A stretch of 64,000 nucleotides of DNA from an uncultured Clostridia bacterium (GTDB taxonomy: Bacteria > Bacillota > Clostridia > Christensenellales > UBA1242). The notes beneath the pieces are model-generated. The model saw nothing but the letters and a program-made list of their open reading frames with translations. It was not told the origin of the DNA and ran no database searches. Location: positions 2,277 to 66,276 of the forward strand of contig CALWTH010000054.1 in NCBI GenBank assembly GCA_944384405.1, read 5' to 3'. Shown here one piece after another: positions 14,677 to 28,347 of the stretch (position 1 is the first letter of the stretch; the number at the start of each line of letters is the position of its first letter). The position numbers and the translations under genes are program-made.

Positions 14677-14731
14677 GTGGTGGGCAGGGATGGATTCGAA
14701 CCATCGAAGGCGAAGCCGACGGATTTACAGT
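14677..14731 (-). repeat. attL: orphan 3' fragment of tRNA-Tyr (55 bp, identical to 28262-28316)
   Basis: Letter-by-letter identical 55-mer GTGGTGGGCAGGGATGGATTCGAACCATCGAAGGCGAAGCCGACGGATTTACAGT at both positions; identity stops on both sides. Confidence 0.9.
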
Positions 14732-14781
14732 TTTTAAGCAAAGAGGCTACATGCCTTACAACAAAAGGATTTCATGATTTT

Positions 14782-14838
14782 TTGGATAAAATTTTTGGAT
14801 AAGTTTTTCGATTGATTTTCGTATTTTAATTGGATAAG
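14782..14838 (+). promoter_or_regulatory. Three TTGGATAA(G) repeats near the left end, matching tandem copies at 28121-28144 (candidate arm-type integrase sites)
   Basis: TTGGATAA at 14782-14789, TTGGATAAG at 14795-14803 and 14830-14838; TTTTTGGATAAG x2 at 28121-28144, same orientation. Confidence 0.4.
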
Positions 14839-14844
14839 TTCTAT

Positions 14845-14875
14845 AAAAAACAAGCCATATTTAGGCTTGTTTTTA
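14845..14875 (-). terminator. Terminator closing the leftward operon of the element (could act bidirectionally)
   Basis: AAAAAACAAGCC-ATATTTA-GGCTTGTTTTT directly downstream of the 71-aa ORF. Confidence 0.55.
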
Positions 14876-14882
14876 TGAATGT

Positions 14883-15098
14883 TTATTTGTCTTGTGTAGT
14901 TTTGACGATGTAGTCATTTATATCTTTTATTTTGAATTCCTGACTGTGCCAACGAGAGTTCTCTAATGTTTCATAAAATTCAATATAACTTTGTTGAGCT
15001 TCTTTTGGTGCTTTATCGGTTAAAAGATATCTGCCTTTTTCATCATCCACAACATACCATTCTGGATTATTTAAAAATAAAGGTTTTTCTAACAACAT
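14883..15098 (-). CDS. Hypothetical 71-aa acidic protein, last gene of the element's leftward operon
   Basis: ORF abuts the zincin gene stop (1-nt gap); no recognisable motif. Confidence 0.45.
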   Translation of the reverse strand: MLLEKPLFLNNPEWYVVDDEKGRYLLTDKAPKEAQQSYIEFYETLENSRWHSQEFKIKDINDYIVKTTQDK

Positions 15099-15099
15099 A

Positions 15100-15855
15100 C
15101 TATTTTTCTCCTTTTAAATATATTTCTAGCGATTTAGCAGTGTCTGATGGATTATCACAAGTAAGCATCTCACTAAAAGTTTCTGCAAAGAATTCATAAG
15201 GATCACTAGTTCCATATATGCTTGTAGTACTAGTGGTATGAAAAGTATTTTTACATATACTCCTTATTTTTGTTCTCATTTCGTTCGCTATATCATCATC
15301 ATATTGTAATGGATTTCTTGCTCGTATGTCAACTTCACCACGTTGCTTGGCGATCTGCTCTGTCAGTACTCTTTGAACATAGTGTCCCATTTCATGAGTC
15401 ATTGTATGTACCAGCAAATTTTGTCTATCAGATTTTGTCCAATACCCAATTTCTATTTGTTTTTGCACCTGCGTTTCGACTTCTCTTGCGGTATCTCGCT
15501 GATAAGATTTATTAAAAATAATTTCAGGTCTTTTAAAAGTGTCAATTTGACATCTAAAACAAGCTTTAACATTGGGATTACTAAACGTTTCTGTTCTAAC
15601 TTTTAGATTTTCAACTTCTGCATAATCAGAGTATTGTCTGAACCTTGACATAATTCTATCAAGTTGTTTAAGGTTAGGGGTGAGTATTTCGTCAGGTATT
15701 TTATCTGTTGATGCCATTACTTGAACATTTCTTTTTGTTAGTTTTTCAACTATTCTAGTTCGATTGTTTGTAGGTTTATCTTGATCGTAAGTATCGCTTA
15801 CTTTAATCCGCATACTTCCGCTTCTATTAAAATAACTTGAGCCTCTTCCGCCCAT
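15100..15855 (-). CDS. HExxH zinc metallopeptidase-like protein (zincin)
   Basis: HTMTHEMGHYV plus downstream YEFFAETFSE (third-ligand Glu context as in lethal-factor/MtfA-type zincins); N-terminus MGGRGSSYF; GGAGG RBS. Confidence 0.6.
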   Translation of the reverse strand: MGGRGSSYFNRSGSMRIKVSDTYDQDKPTNNRTRIVEKLTKRNVQVMASTDKIPDEILTPNLKQLDRIMSRFRQYSDYAEVENLKVRTETFSNPNVKACFRCQIDTFKRPEIIFNKSYQRDTAREVETQVQKQIEIGYWTKSDRQNLLVHTMTHEMGHYVQRVLTEQIAKQRGEVDIRARNPLQYDDDIANEMRTKIRSICKNTFHTTSTTSIYGTSDPYEFFAETFSEMLTCDNPSDTAKSLEIYLKGEK

Positions 15856-15872
15856 AAATATATCCTCCTAGT

Positions 15873-26427: not shown

Positions 26428-26482
26428 ATACCCCTATATGTAATATTTGTACTTCCACAATACTACTTATACCCCTATATGT
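26428..26482. promoter_or_regulatory. Divergent promoter/operator region with two 14-bp direct repeats
   Basis: ATACCCCTATATGT at 26428-26441 and 26469-26482, between the divergent XRE genes. Confidence 0.45.
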
Positions 26483-26550
26483 CAACTTTTTTGAAGCATT
26501 TTTTGTTGAAAATATTACAAATAGTGTTAAAATATTATAAAGGAGGTATT

Positions 26551-26916
26551 ATGGAACTAAAAATAAAGGAATATAGGAAGCTTAATAATTTGACGCAAAC
26601 GGATATTGCTCAATTAACTGGATACCAGCAAACACTGATTTCAAAGTGGGAAAACAAGGAACGAGAACCTAATTTAGATGTAATCTGCAAATTAGCAGAC
26701 ACTTTTAATATTTCTGTTGATGAATTAGTTGGAAGAAATTATAAAAAAGTTGCAACTCAGAACTTGACAGAGAATCAGCAAAAGATTCTGGACATTCTTC
26801 CAAGCTTGAATGAACAACAATGTTCTGCTGTTCTTAGTATGATTAAAGCATTTAATACAACTACAAAAGAACAAGTCGAAATGGCAAGACAAATTAGAAA
26901 ATTTGAGGATAAATAA
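26551..26916 (+). CDS. XRE-family HTH regulator (cI-like, co-directional with integrase, 121 aa)
   Basis: MELKIKEYRKLNNLTQTDIAQLTGYQQTLISKWENKEREPNLDVI; AAAGGAGG RBS; the track's upstream extension is unlikely. Confidence 0.7.
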   Translation: MELKIKEYRKLNNLTQTDIAQLTGYQQTLISKWENKEREPNLDVICKLADTFNISVDELVGRNYKKVATQNLTENQQKILDILPSLNEQQCSAVLSMIKAFNTTTKEQVEMARQIRKFEDK

Positions 26917-26943
26917 TGTTAATTGAAGATATAAAAAAACTTA

Positions 26944-28131
26944 ATGTTAATCATCAATACAGCAAGTTCTCTTTATGGAACATTTGAAAAAATTCAGTTC
27001 GCCGACCAACAAGAGCGGGAAAGAATCAAACAAAGTCTCACTTTATTGACTTTCCCTGGTAGAACTAAAACGGAACAATTACCAAAAGACAAAAAGAAAA
27101 TCATGAAATCCTTATCTAAGAAAAAAGGAGATGAGGATTTGAAAAATATTTATTATGTTTACACTGAAAAAAGGTACATGGGCAGAAAGCAAATTAAAAA
27201 CAAGCTTATAACTGTCCATGCAAAAACACAATTAGAATGTAAGAAAAAATTAACGGAAGCGGTGAATGCTTTTCTGAATAGCCGTATTCCAACAAAGAAA
27301 ACAAAATTGACACTATTAGAGTTTTGGGATAAATGGTACAGCCAGGACAAAGAGCCATTTATTTCTGAGGGTACAAAGAAAGATTTAACCCAATTAAGAA
27401 CTTACTTATTGCCTTTGCTTGAGCTAAACATAGCCAAAATAGATAAAGATAGAATAATAAATTTTTTTAGTAAAGTAGAGGAAAACCGAACCAAAGAAAA
27501 AATGCACATATACTTGAAAGCATGTTTCAAAAGTGCAGTAAGGCATGGGGTTATAAAAAAGAATCCATATGATTTAATTATATTGCCACCGAGGTCAAGG
27601 GCTCACAAACAGGCATTGACATTTGAGGAACAACAAAGGTTGCTTATGTATGTAAAAGGCAAGCCTATAGGAATTATCATTTTGATATATCTGCTTACAG
27701 GACTAAGGAAAAAGGAATTAAACTTCAAAGCTATAGAGAATGACATAAATTTTGAAAACAACACACTTAAAGCTATCAATTTGAAGGGGAGAAATAACAT
27801 AGTGAGATATAAACACATTAGACTATCAAAAGGTACAATAAAACTCATAATGGACAATTTGGATAAGATTCACAAGTACGATGACGAGTCGGCATATCGT
27901 GAAGTTCTTAAGGTAATGAGGGAGTTGGGCATACAAAAAAGCATAGTCAATTTAAGGCATACATTTGCAACAAATCATTTGTACCTTGGTACACCAGACT
28001 ACATTATTTCAAAAGAAATGGGGCATTCGACAAGTCAAATTACAAAGGATAATTATATGGATATAGACTTCAATTTGACTAAAGAAAAAATAGTTAAATT
28101 ATATAATAATTTATACACAATTTTTGGATAA
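26944..28131 (+). CDS. int: Tyrosine recombinase/integrase
   Basis: C-terminal catalytic region LTGLRKKEL, LRHTFATNHL, GHSTSQITKDNYMD (R..H-x-x-R..Y pattern); adjacent to attR/tRNA-Tyr. Confidence 0.85.
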   Translation: MLIINTASSLYGTFEKIQFADQQERERIKQSLTLLTFPGRTKTEQLPKDKKKIMKSLSKKKGDEDLKNIYYVYTEKRYMGRKQIKNKLITVHAKTQLECKKKLTEAVNAFLNSRIPTKKTKLTLLEFWDKWYSQDKEPFISEGTKKDLTQLRTYLLPLLELNIAKIDKDRIINFFSKVEENRTKEKMHIYLKACFKSAVRHGVIKKNPYDLIILPPRSRAHKQALTFEEQQRLLMYVKGKPIGIIILIYLLTGLRKKELNFKAIENDINFENNTLKAINLKGRNNIVRYKHIRLSKGTIKLIMDNLDKIHKYDDESAYREVLKVMRELGIQKSIVNLRHTFATNHLYLGTPDYIISKEMGHSTSQITKDNYMDIDFNLTKEKIVKLYNNLYTIFG

Positions 28132-28144
28132 GTTTTTGGATAAG
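28121..28144 (+). repeat. Tandem TTTTTGGATAAG x2 overlapping the integrase stop codon (right-end copies of the end repeat)
   Basis: 28121-28132 and 28133-28144; same motif as at 14782-14838. Confidence 0.5.
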
Positions 28145-28204
28145 TTTTTTTCACATTTCACAACACTTTTTTGAACATTTGTTCTAAAAATTGTTGTTTT
28201 TAAA

Positions 28205-28250
28205 AAAATATAAAAAAAGGCTGAAAACCTTTATTTTAAAGGCTTTCAGC
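28205..28250 (-). terminator. Rho-independent terminator supplied by the element for the reconstituted tRNA operon
   Basis: Minus strand GCTGAAAGCCTTT-AAAAT-AAAGGTTTTCAGC (one mismatch) followed by CTTTTTTTATATTTTTT, 12 nt after the tRNA-Tyr CCA. Confidence 0.6.
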
Positions 28251-28262
28251 ACTTTACATAAG

Positions 28263-28347
28263 TGGTGGGCAGGGATGGATTCGAACCATCGAAGGCGAAG
28301 CCGACGGATTTACAGTCCGTTGCATTTGACCGCTCTGCAACCTACCC
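28263..28347 (-). tRNA. tRNA-Tyr(GTA), class II with long variable arm, encoded CCA; its 3' 55 nt form attR
   Basis: Reverse complement GGGTAGGTTGCAGAGCGGTCAAATGCAACGGACTGTAAATCCGTCGGCTTCGCCTTCGATGGTTCGAATCCATCCCTGCCCACCA. Acceptor GGGTAGG/CCTGCCC; anticodon loop CTGTAAA. Confidence 0.9.

Follow-up and report, generated by a model that had tools for sequence, protein, structure and literature searches.

An integrated element in a tRNA-Tyr gene of an uncultured Clostridia bacterium, most likely a temperate provirus with a probable remote relative of the Zot/pI ATPases

What kind of genetic element inserts into a tRNA gene, carries its own integrase and a phage-type repressor switch, and holds no recognizable gene of a tailed phage or of a conjugative element? 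The question is raised by a locus in a 64,000-nucleotide (nt) stretch of DNA from an uncultured Clostridia bacterium (GenBank assembly GCA_944384405.1, contig CALWTH010000054.1, positions 2,277 to 66,276), which we call the window and to whose first letter all positions below refer. An earlier note on this DNA had described a discrete integrase-bearing element in tRNA-Tyr and had compared it to a filamentous, inovirus-like prophage or to a satellite of the phage-inducible chromosomal island (PICI) type. Our analysis supports the discrete element: the insertion is site-specific and rebuilds the tRNA, the switch and the integrase are intact, and membrane proteins and an ATPase form a self-contained module. 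It is most likely the complete temperate provirus of a lineage not yet described, and is best described as the Clostridia counterpart of the large IME1-type elements of Dehalococcoides, with an ATPase of inverted topology. The balance tips modestly toward a temperate, non-lytic virus that is assembled and extruded at the membrane and is inovirus-like in its logic. This reading does not extend to membership in Inoviridae or Plasmaviridae.

The element is bounded by a 55-nt sequence that is repeated exactly and in the same orientation at 14677-14731 and 28262-28316; the two copies start 13,585 nt apart, and chance cannot account for identical 55-mers at a distance of 13.6 kb. According to both ARAGORN and Rfam, tRNA-Tyr(gta) occupies 28263-28347 of the minus strand and is the final gene of a tRNA operon with the order Pro-Met-Asp-Phe-Thr-Tyr, and the repeat spans this gene from 3 nt 5' of the anticodon to the CCA plus one base, which confirms the repeat and the tRNA reported in the earlier note. 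The element supplies a replacement 3' half of tRNA-Tyr together with a terminator of its own, and it is at this element-borne terminator (28220-28250) that the tRNA operon now ends. The hairpin and T-run at 14645-14668 look like the displaced original terminator of the operon, in agreement with the earlier placement of the orphan 3' fragment beside such a terminator, and they are kept at the empty site described next.

Looking up contigs that encode an identical SpoIIAA protein led to the empty site. Many related genomes have the order mutS-mutL-miaA-(tRNA operon)-spoIIAA-spoIIAB-sigF without the element, and one contig (L035; related loci are cited here by such labels) presents a precise empty attB of the kind that the earlier note had proposed to look for. 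Between miaA and spoIIAA it contains the left flank (window 14634-14676), a single 55-mer and the contiguous 5' half of the tRNA, with 99% identity to the window on the tRNA side. Because a related strain has the same site empty, the element is a precise 13,585-bp insertion. Another route, through MiaA, led to a contig that broke inside the repeat (L026) and to another whose downstream arrangement differs (L027). In the latter (1429-3639) the MiaA protein is identical and the sequence departs from that of the window at about 14582, with a sigma-70-like gene and a 452-amino acid (aa) open reading frame (ORF) where the window has the tRNA fragment; the junction in L027 is a different arrangement or another insertion.

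Sequences flanking the two cores provide candidate sites for the integrase. The CTTATCCAAA-type motif has 19 matches in the window against 9.3 expected, and five copies, all on the same strand, lie at most about 140 nt from the cores (three within about 110 nt of one core and two within about 140 nt of the other). The motif is also present at both ends of a related element (L018). We infer that these copies are arm-type sites of the integrase. This fits better than DnaA boxes, an interpretation that we dropped; the exact DnaA box TTATCCACA does not occur in the window.

Two other contigs carry short element-end remnants at the same attB, between miaA and tRNA-Tyr (L033 3840-4208 and L034 3738-4219). 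They consist of a stretch from the integrase-side end (about 140 nt or 53 nt) and a piece, 77% identical, of the gene for the 71-aa protein that closes the element, and L033 is a different contig from the window's own sample. Their presence indicates that the tRNA-Tyr site has been used repeatedly and suggests earlier occupation followed by deletion. Such remnants could also be taken to favor the idea that the element itself is the decayed remnant of a tailed prophage, which we find scarcely credible. The 55-nt repeats are perfect, the ORFs are intact throughout with no pseudogenes in a tightly packed operon, near-identical copies of the element occur in several samples, and full-length synteny extends to many relatives, all of them without head or tail genes.

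We then asked which known class the gene content would fit, with profile scans covering 18 ORFs in Pfam and PHROGs and ten ORFs in NCBIfam, along with PADLOC. No terminase, portal, capsid, tail, holin, endolysin, relaxase, VirB4 or coupling protein was found in these four libraries, upholding the earlier observation that tailed-phage and conjugative hallmarks are missing. Among the scanned ORFs there was no match to the Caudoviricetes set (terminase, portal, HK97-fold capsid, tail, lysis), nor to the relaxase, VirB4 or FtsK/TraG/TrwB-type coupling protein expected of integrative and conjugative or mobilizable elements (ICEs and IMEs), and no VirB6/8-like protein or cell-wall hydrolase was matched in the profile libraries. 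From the PICI set an integrase and a repressor are present, with no match to a primase-helicase, terS or a cpm-like gene. Defense-system cargo was likewise rejected, as neither PADLOC nor the other libraries gave a match. The element is neither a tailed prophage nor an ICE or IME with a type IV secretion system, and the profile searches that could have moved it into one of these classes leave it outside both.

The gene that gives the element its character encodes a membrane ATPase of 402 aa. Its transmembrane (TM) helices lie at about residues 13-32 and 40-60, with none after Walker A. We found 17 relatives in a word-indexed protein database, and a profile search (A1) of 1.84 billion representatives returned 410 clusters at 50% identity with E<=1e-3, 153 of them with E<=1e-30. 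A further profile (A2) run on the word-indexed database made almost no additions among the matches listed, and a scan of JGI metagenomes added one distant locus. Among 44 diverse family members, 8 match Pfam Zot (PF05707; best 5e-9) and 7 match phrog_197 'Zot-like toxin'; in one member, P0160, a match covering the Walker B / RH..Q region exceeds the gathering score of Zot. An hhalign comparison of the ATPase family with M13 pI gave 66.8% probability over the Walker B / RH..Q segment, and a PDB sequence search with the ATPase profile gave chance-level matches only.

Structure prediction points the same way. An AlphaFold2 model built on a 44-sequence alignment reached a pLDDT of 92.8 (an earlier run on 12 close sequences, with a pLDDT of 64, was discarded), and its best solved-structure match is 2r2a, the N-terminal domain of Neisseria Zot (E 6e-5), with the STIV2 B204 packaging NTPase, HerA and p97 ranking next. 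Several BFVD matches are annotated 'Zonular occludens toxin [Inoviridae sp.]'; others are giant-virus packaging ATPases of the A32 type, and ORF3 of Acholeplasma virus L2 (E 9e-4) is matched as well. The best BFVD match is A0A894JLK1 (E 8e-12, TM-score 0.66 by target, 269 aa); A0A894JLK4 was also matched. Taken together, sequence profiles and the model suggest that the ATPase is likely a remote member of the Zot/pI branch of the FtsK-HerA ATPases. The evidence reaches remote homology with pI, which is likely, and not orthology. Since, according to Roux et al. 2019 (PMC6813254), filamentous phages have no conserved marker other than a pI-like ATPase, the earlier phrase 'none of the hallmarks' was too strong; the note had correctly recognized a TM-anchored P-loop ATPase and had missed its relationship to Zot and pI.

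These fold neighbors also bear on a different kind of explanation, that of a non-viral integrative element moving by cell contact, in which the ATPase would be a DNA translocase (a coupling protein or similar to Streptomyces TraB) and the adhesin-like proteins would hold mates together. Two N-terminal TM helices followed by an ATPase are the architecture of type IV coupling proteins, and one of the anchored proteins has adhesin-type repeats (PARCEL and Listeria-Bacteroides). Integrative elements of actinomycetes, 9-24 kb in size and located in tRNA genes, manage with an integrase, a replication protein and a single FtsK-like protein. We nevertheless consider this explanation improbable. The element shows no match to a relaxase, VirB4, VirB6/8-like protein or cell-wall hydrolase; the neighbors of the ATPase model are Zot, viral packaging ATPases, HerA and p97, with TrwB, FtsK and VirD4 absent from the top 50 PDB matches; and tblastn with the ATPase (P0001) found no match in 72,556 plasmids. 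To our knowledge, TraB-type transfer is confined to mycelial actinomycetes.

Upstream of the ATPase gene in the same operon are genes for four membrane proteins of 537, 410, 171 and 467 aa. Each has one N-terminal hydrophobic segment and none at the C-terminus, in line with the four anchored surface proteins of the earlier note. The 467-aa protein has its TM segment at residues 1-19 and contains a coiled coil, a Listeria-Bacteroides repeat and PARCEL/DUF285 repeats. PDB sequence searches with the 537- and 410-aa proteins gave chance-level matches only. In relatives with the four-protein block, a TM protein of 171-206 aa takes the position of the 171-aa protein. The anchored proteins are 24-44% identical between relatives whose ATPases are 72-88% identical; such fast divergence is as expected for receptor-binding, structural or virion-surface proteins and not for cargo.

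The gap of about 450 nt between the HNH gene and the 537-aa gene (25224-25672) contains two small ORFs absent from the earlier note. The 31-aa wholly hydrophobic ORF shows conservative substitutions in L016 and L018/L019 and has a 48-aa version in the divergent L009. All five copies have an apparent ATT start (ATTGTAAAA, six bases after GGAGGTG), and this rare start suggests tightly limited translation. It is the sole free-standing candidate in the element for a single-TM structural protein of 30-90 aa, is conserved in four elements and is a candidate for a small structural or assembly membrane protein. The stretch between the two ORFs (25338-25552) is kept in L016 and L018 and missing in L009. 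Rfam has no match for it and its predicted fold is not significant (z-score -1.07); it may serve the membrane-protein operon as a leader or a regulatory region. Distant relatives have single-TM ORFs of 64-79 aa in their membrane-protein block (L012 4391-4615 / L013 12459-12665; L011 4660-4854; L001 2416-2655), and the one in L012 and L013 is laid out like the major coat protein of an inovirus: its N-terminus is amphipathic, a TM segment follows and the C-terminus is basic (…KKNEHSNNHNYYNKNRGR).

Could the element then be a canonical single-stranded DNA (ssDNA) filamentous phage (Tubulavirales) that has acquired a larger lysogeny and replication module? The succession from tiny hydrophobic ORFs through one or more large outside proteins and a smaller membrane protein to the ATPase parallels VII/IX/VIII-III-VI-I of M13 and Orf3-5/6/7/8 of Propionibacterium phage B5. 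As in the Inoviridae and Paulinoviridae (M13, B5 and the Enterocloster phages), tiny hydrophobic ORFs open the block ahead of the large proteins and a Zot/pI-type ATPase ends it, lysis genes are lacking, and temperate forms are flanked by direct repeats. The single-TM proteins of the distant relatives, one with its coat-like basic C-terminus, also fit, and inoviruses of Gram-positive bacteria and of gut Clostridia exist, including those secreted by gut Enterocloster, one of them 16 kb (PMC10061712). Even so, we judge a canonical filamentous phage rather unlikely. Inoviruses have a rolling-circle Rep, an ssDNA-binding protein, a major coat protein of 30-90 aa and genomes of about 4-12 kb with short genes, whereas the element has neither a Rep of the HUH type nor an ssDNA-binding protein, its initiator is Lin1244_N/DnaD-like as in double-stranded DNA (dsDNA) phages, and the 31-aa ORF, with its ATT start, is ill suited to be the major coat. 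At 13,585 bp, with genes of 537, 467, 410 and 402 aa and four large N-anchored proteins of 171-537 aa, it falls outside the 5.5-10.6 kb and 7-15 proteins given for Inoviridae (PMC8491893). Moreover, the ATPase has an N-terminal TM hairpin, the inverse of pI, in which the P-loop is at residues 8-15 and the TM segment is C-terminal. The inovirus-like half of the earlier comparison gains support from the remote Zot/pI ATPase; the element is no textbook inovirus, given the inverted ATPase, the absence of Rep and of an ssDNA-binding protein, the large genes and the ATT-start ORF.

A second viral alternative is a plasmavirus-like enveloped pleomorphic virus, kin to Acholeplasma virus L2, whose envelope proteins would be the anchored proteins and whose ORF3 would correspond to the ATPase. 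L2 has about 12 kb (12-13 kb in the comparison), 32% GC and its own integrase, buds without lysis and has no lysis genes, and L2-related Acholeplasma prophages occupy tRNA genes (PMC12662186). Its order ORF13 (envelope)-ORF14 (envelope)-ORF1-ORF2-ORF3-ORF4-ori-int resembles that of large membrane proteins, then the ATPase, then a gap, with large signal- or TM-bearing envelope proteins preceding the P-loop protein ORF3. In both ORF3 and the ATPase the P-loop lies about 90-100 residues in, behind hydrophobic helices. ORF3 (P42538) was a Foldseek match of the ATPase model (prob 0.99, TM-scores 0.31/0.38), and hhalign of A2 against the L2-ORF3 family (A4) gave 46% probability (E 2e-4) over 142 columns that take in the pre-Walker A helix, Walker A, Walker B and RH..Q. 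In the L2 genome (L015), ORF3 (2278-3216; 312 aa) has Walker A about 100 residues in, a Walker B of LILDEF and a Zot/pI-like RH...SQ.

Against this kinship, phmmer with the 14 L2 ORFs against the ORFs of 16 related loci returned a weak integrase match only (0.0034), the ATPase hidden Markov models miss L2 ORF3 (E>0.05), and Zot stands above L2 ORF3 in both fold searches. L2 also differs in its DnaA-box origins used with the host replisome, its lack of a recognized initiator and its wall-less host. The host of the element, a spore-forming gut bacterium, is walled, since genes for a transglycosylase/transpeptidase penicillin-binding protein and for sporulation (SpoIIAA/AB, SigF, SpoVA, YunB) flank the site, and we know of no precedent for enveloped particles budding through peptidoglycan. 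A plasmavirus-like virus is quite unlikely on this evidence, and plasmavirus membership by sequence was rejected for want of any L2 match beyond the weak integrase one. According to the ICTV profile, plasmaviruses share only the integrase with other viruses. We also compared the Pleolipoviridae (HRPV-1, HHPV-1), whose small genomes run from a membrane protein through a spike protein and small ORFs to a putative ATPase (VP8) and which likewise leave without lysis, but infect archaea; a relationship to VP8 was rejected, the hhalign probability being 7-11% and at the level of the P-loop only.

The closest precedent in concept, by analogy, appears to be IME1 of Dehalococcoides. These elements of 21-28 kb have been proposed to be dsDNA, non-lytic, likely filamentous viruses; they encode an integrase, an HNH protein, a pI-like ATPase, TM proteins and adhesin-domain proteins of low conservation. 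They are abundant as dsDNA in filament-containing virus fractions and dominate filament-containing dsDNA metaviromes, having earlier been taken for satellites (bioRxiv 10.64898/2026.09.15.751708). Like IME1, the element is integrated, bears an integrase, lacks the hallmarks of tailed phages and was once suspected of being a satellite or PICI, and both consist of three modules (integration and regulation with HNH; virion biogenesis; replication with a dsDNA-type initiator). Going by the published description, the IME1 layout of three modules, a pI-like ATPase, TM and adhesin-domain proteins and more than 12 kb is found in the element as well. The two differ, in a comparison made by description only, in that IME1 has an archaeal-type primase-helicase, an extra resolvase and TM proteins downstream of the ATPase and is reported only from Chloroflexota, whereas the element has 13.6 kb, a Lin1244_N initiator, anchored proteins upstream of the ATPase and a Clostridia host.

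The IME1 case is also instructive for the remaining alternative, a PICI-like satellite that needs a helper phage and carries the membrane/ATPase block as cargo, for example for superinfection exclusion or surface remodeling. The size and the int / cI-cro / rep layout fit a satellite, as does the absence of a recognized capsid gene. The block, however, accounts for about 45% of the element and, unlike cargo, keeps its synteny in relatives whose ATPases are 24-32% identical; genes for terS, capsid size or packaging interference are lacking, as are a Pri-Rep-type primase-helicase and any defense-system match; and the same argument was raised and rejected for IME1 (bioRxiv 10.64898/2026.09.15.751708). 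The element is unlikely to be a satellite, and we give the helper-dependent scenario with its cargo very little weight. The PICI half of the earlier comparison was not borne out, given the syntenic module of its own and the lack of a packaging-hijack gene.

How widespread is this arrangement? Contigs with close (65-88% identity) and with distant (24-32%) ATPases have a common order: recombinase, cI-like/cro-like regulators, HNH, (small TM ORF), two to four large N-anchored proteins and ATPase, followed by a gap, HTH (helix-turn-helix), 140-aa protein, initiator, other genes, DUF4417, zincin and 71-aa ORF. Within this order the parts vary. The 410-aa protein, for instance, has homologs 24-28% identical where the ATPase is 72% identical. 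The recombinase is a tyrosine integrase or a large serine recombinase, the initiator is of the Lin1244_N type or, in the distant relative L021, RepL (weak match), and the sites occupied are tRNA-Tyr, tRNA-Ser(gct), tRNA-Ser(tga), tRNA-Leu(taa) and tRNA-Met. L016 combines a Pfam-confirmed large serine recombinase with a LexA-type HTH + Peptidase_S24 repressor at the cI-like position. All named hosts are 'uncultured Clostridia bacterium' metagenome-assembled genomes (MAGs).

Several individual loci add detail to this family. The serine recombinase variants are at 1154-2773 in L016 and, as a putative one of 496 aa, at 293-1783 in L012, and in both the recombinase ORF overlaps at its 3' end with a predicted tRNA-Met (L016 1225-1301, L012 238-314). 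L016 has just two very large proteins (629 and 699 aa) before the ATPase. L009 and L013 both come from MAG E02 bin162, with ATPases 86% and 30% identical to that of the window, and two family members in one genome suggest distinct immunity or compatibility groups. L018 is a 14,844-nt Logan contig running from the integrase end to the 71-aa gene, and its positions 1-30 equal 14815-14844, inside a tRNA-Leu att repeat. This terminal overlap of 30 nt can be a circular form or a k=31 graph artifact of an integrated copy; no related contig is demonstrably circular.

We therefore return to the temperate, non-lytic virus as the preferred reading and sketch how it might work. The tyrosine integrase would recombine the 55-nt attP core with the 3' half of tRNA-Tyr, and the divergent cI/cro-type pair of XRE regulators would, to judge from the layout, control one long minus-strand operon, so that derepression of the cro side would lead to excision. 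The excised dsDNA circle may replicate in theta mode from the Lin1244_N initiator with help from the host replisome. The anchored and tiny hydrophobic proteins would be inserted in the membrane, with the large domains of the former outside, and the N-terminal TM hairpin would anchor the ATPase so that its catalytic domain faces the cytoplasm. The ATPase could then drive genome assembly and export through a membrane site studded with anchored proteins, the particles leaving without lysis as in filamentous phages. As a speculation, the HNH protein or the DUF4417 'nuclease' might nick the DNA for strand displacement.

Several points weigh against this reading. The window ATPase itself matches neither Pfam Zot nor any PHROG, and it is linked to Zot only transitively and by structure, the TM-scores being modest (0.27 by query, 0.52 by target). 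Its topology is the inverse of that of pI, in which the ATPase domain is N-terminal and the TM segment C-terminal: among 122 family members with a full-length N-terminal region, 119 have TM helices before Walker A and 112 have none after it. No member of the family turned up in 50,697 deposited phage genomes (tblastn with the ATPase and the distant P0160 and P0017) or in IMG/VR (one scan with the family alignment and two with single proteins, three in all), and for this reason no particle has ever been linked to it. There is no rolling-circle (HUH) Rep, ssDNA-binding protein or Rep_trans/Phage_CRI match, no clear major coat protein of 40-90 aa, the lone short TM ORF having a weak ATT start, and the four large proteins lack a C-terminal anchor of the pIII type. 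Neither an excision product nor a particle nor transfer has been seen, and the particle could be a filament or a membrane vesicle, with ssDNA or dsDNA inside.

The remaining genes are described next, and the coordinates of all features are collected in Table 1. All gene calls of the earlier note (XRE pair, HNH, anchored proteins, ATPase, HTH, Lin1244_N-type rep, DUF4417 and HExxH) were reproduced. The integrase scores 29.3 bits against PF00589 (cut-off 27.1), and by eye it has a box I of TGLR, a box II of LRHTFAT and the tyrosine within DNYMD. The cro-like gene is the first of the long minus-strand operon, and the HNH gene holds the same position in L001, L009, L011, L012, L013, L016 and L018. 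A gap of about 250-370 nt occurs in all relatives at the place corresponding to 18997-19233, which we infer to be a candidate promoter or origin. A tblastn search with the DUF4417 protein found matches in 493 phage records, mostly of tailed phages; from its sequence it appears to be an accessory DNA-metabolism gene of phage early regions, and because it is common there, the lysogeny and replication parts of the element can be regarded as ordinary temperate-phage material. The zincin also follows DUF4417 in L004, L010, L014 and L018.

Table 1. Features of the element and its insertion site, with window coordinates.
Feature	Coordinates	Strand	Evidence
Hairpin and T-run adjoining the orphan tRNA fragment	14645..14668	-	terminator-like site; kept beside the core in the empty site L035
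Distal att core copy: orphan tRNA-Tyr fragment, the 3' part of the host's original tRNA	14677..14731	-	exact repeat; contiguous with tRNA 5' half in L035
Three CTTATCCAAA-type motif copies beside att core	14781..14838	-	repeat-family analysis, motif count
71-aa conserved ORF, last gene of the element	14883..15098	-	homologs at same terminal position in L004, L010, L014, L018
HExxH zincin-like protein (251 aa)	15100..15855	-	Peptidase_Mx 3.5e-6, 27.1 bits against cut-off 27
DUF4417 protein (215 aa)	15873..16520	-	PF14386 6.5e-58; phrog_8680 and phrog_940 'nuclease'
Three small ORFs (66, 130, 100 aa), no family match	16495..17386	-	homologs scattered among related loci
Replication initiator / replisome-organizer-like (287 aa)	17379..18242	-	Lin1244_N 4.5e-12; phrog_2562 'replication initiation protein' 2.6e-18
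139-aa conserved protein, always between HTH gene and rep	18276..18695	-	L005 gene call; homologs 45-66% identical in six loci
HTH regulator (98 aa), downstream of ATPase	18658..18954	-	HTH_3 5e-4, phrog_3/8; position conserved
AT-rich gap (~27% GC) between ATPase and regulatory/replication genes	18997..19233	.	composition dip; no ORF
Membrane ATPase (402 aa)	19234..20442	-	two N-terminal TM helices, Walker A 91-98, Walker B 195-200, RH...Q motif 227-240
467-aa N-terminally anchored protein, adhesin-type domains	20439..21842	-	DUF285 5.7e-17, Flg_new 1.1e-8, TIGR02167 PARCEL 8.3e-18
171-aa N-terminally anchored protein	21857..22372	-	TM prediction
410-aa N-terminally anchored protein, no family match	22369..23601	-	homologs less conserved than the ATPase (see text)
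537-aa N-terminally anchored protein, no family match	23611..25224	-	44% identical in L009
31-aa wholly hydrophobic ORF (IVKFIFWLILKLIVSALIILLISNAILNFLN), ATT start six bases after AAGGAGGTG	25242..25337	-	conserved in other elements
Conserved non-coding stretch, ~215 nt, between two small ORFs	25338..25552	-	alignment A3
36-aa conserved ORF (MEFNFKQYKMFC...) with strong Shine-Dalgarno	25553..25663	-	protein-level conservation in L016, L018
HNH endonuclease (128 aa)	25672..26058	-	HNH_3 1.2e-5, phrog_959 1.2e-13, PADLOC HEase 2.9e-10
Cro-like XRE regulator (74 aa as called in L005)	26201..26425	-	HTH_3 6.4e-15; gene call
cI-like XRE repressor (145 aa), divergent from cro-like gene	26479..26916	+	HTH_3 1.7e-16
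Tyrosine integrase (395 aa)	26944..28131	+	PF00589, Phage_int_M, phrog_1 1.7e-31
Two CTTATCCAAA motif copies, integrase side of core	28123..28144	-	repeat-family analysis, motif count
Strong element-borne terminator after intact tRNA	28220..28250	-	14-bp stem and T-run
att core copy within intact tRNA-Tyr	28262..28316	-	repeat, ARAGORN, Rfam, empty-site alignment

Finally, what would the element mean for virus discovery and for its hosts? Nearly all prophage finders and virome classifiers rely on head-tail or classical inovirus markers and are blind to such elements. The ATPase family has hundreds of clusters at 50% identity in public data, yet no relative turned up in IMG/VR or the 50,697 phage genomes. 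The inverted-topology Zot-like ATPase offers a ready search marker, and with exact att sites, an empty site and a predicted attP junction to hand, PCR on any sample containing the host could test the question. We also tentatively entertain a broader proposal, that a widespread temperate, non-lytic virus lineage of walled Gram-positive gut bacteria, with at least 410 ATPase clusters at 50% identity, replicates as dsDNA and is exported by an 'inverted' Zot-type ATPase that has an N-terminal membrane hairpin and is the counterpart of L2 ORF3. The possible link to L2 ORF3 would bear on the origin of Plasmaviridae; if the broader proposal is true, these would be the first relatives of Plasmaviridae outside Acholeplasma, and Plasmaviridae, Dehalococcoides IME1 and filamentous phages would form one assembly-ATPase supergroup. 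If particles do form, gut Clostridia carry chronic, non-lytic viruses that can carry surface-adhesin genes from strain to strain and have been missed in virome accounting.

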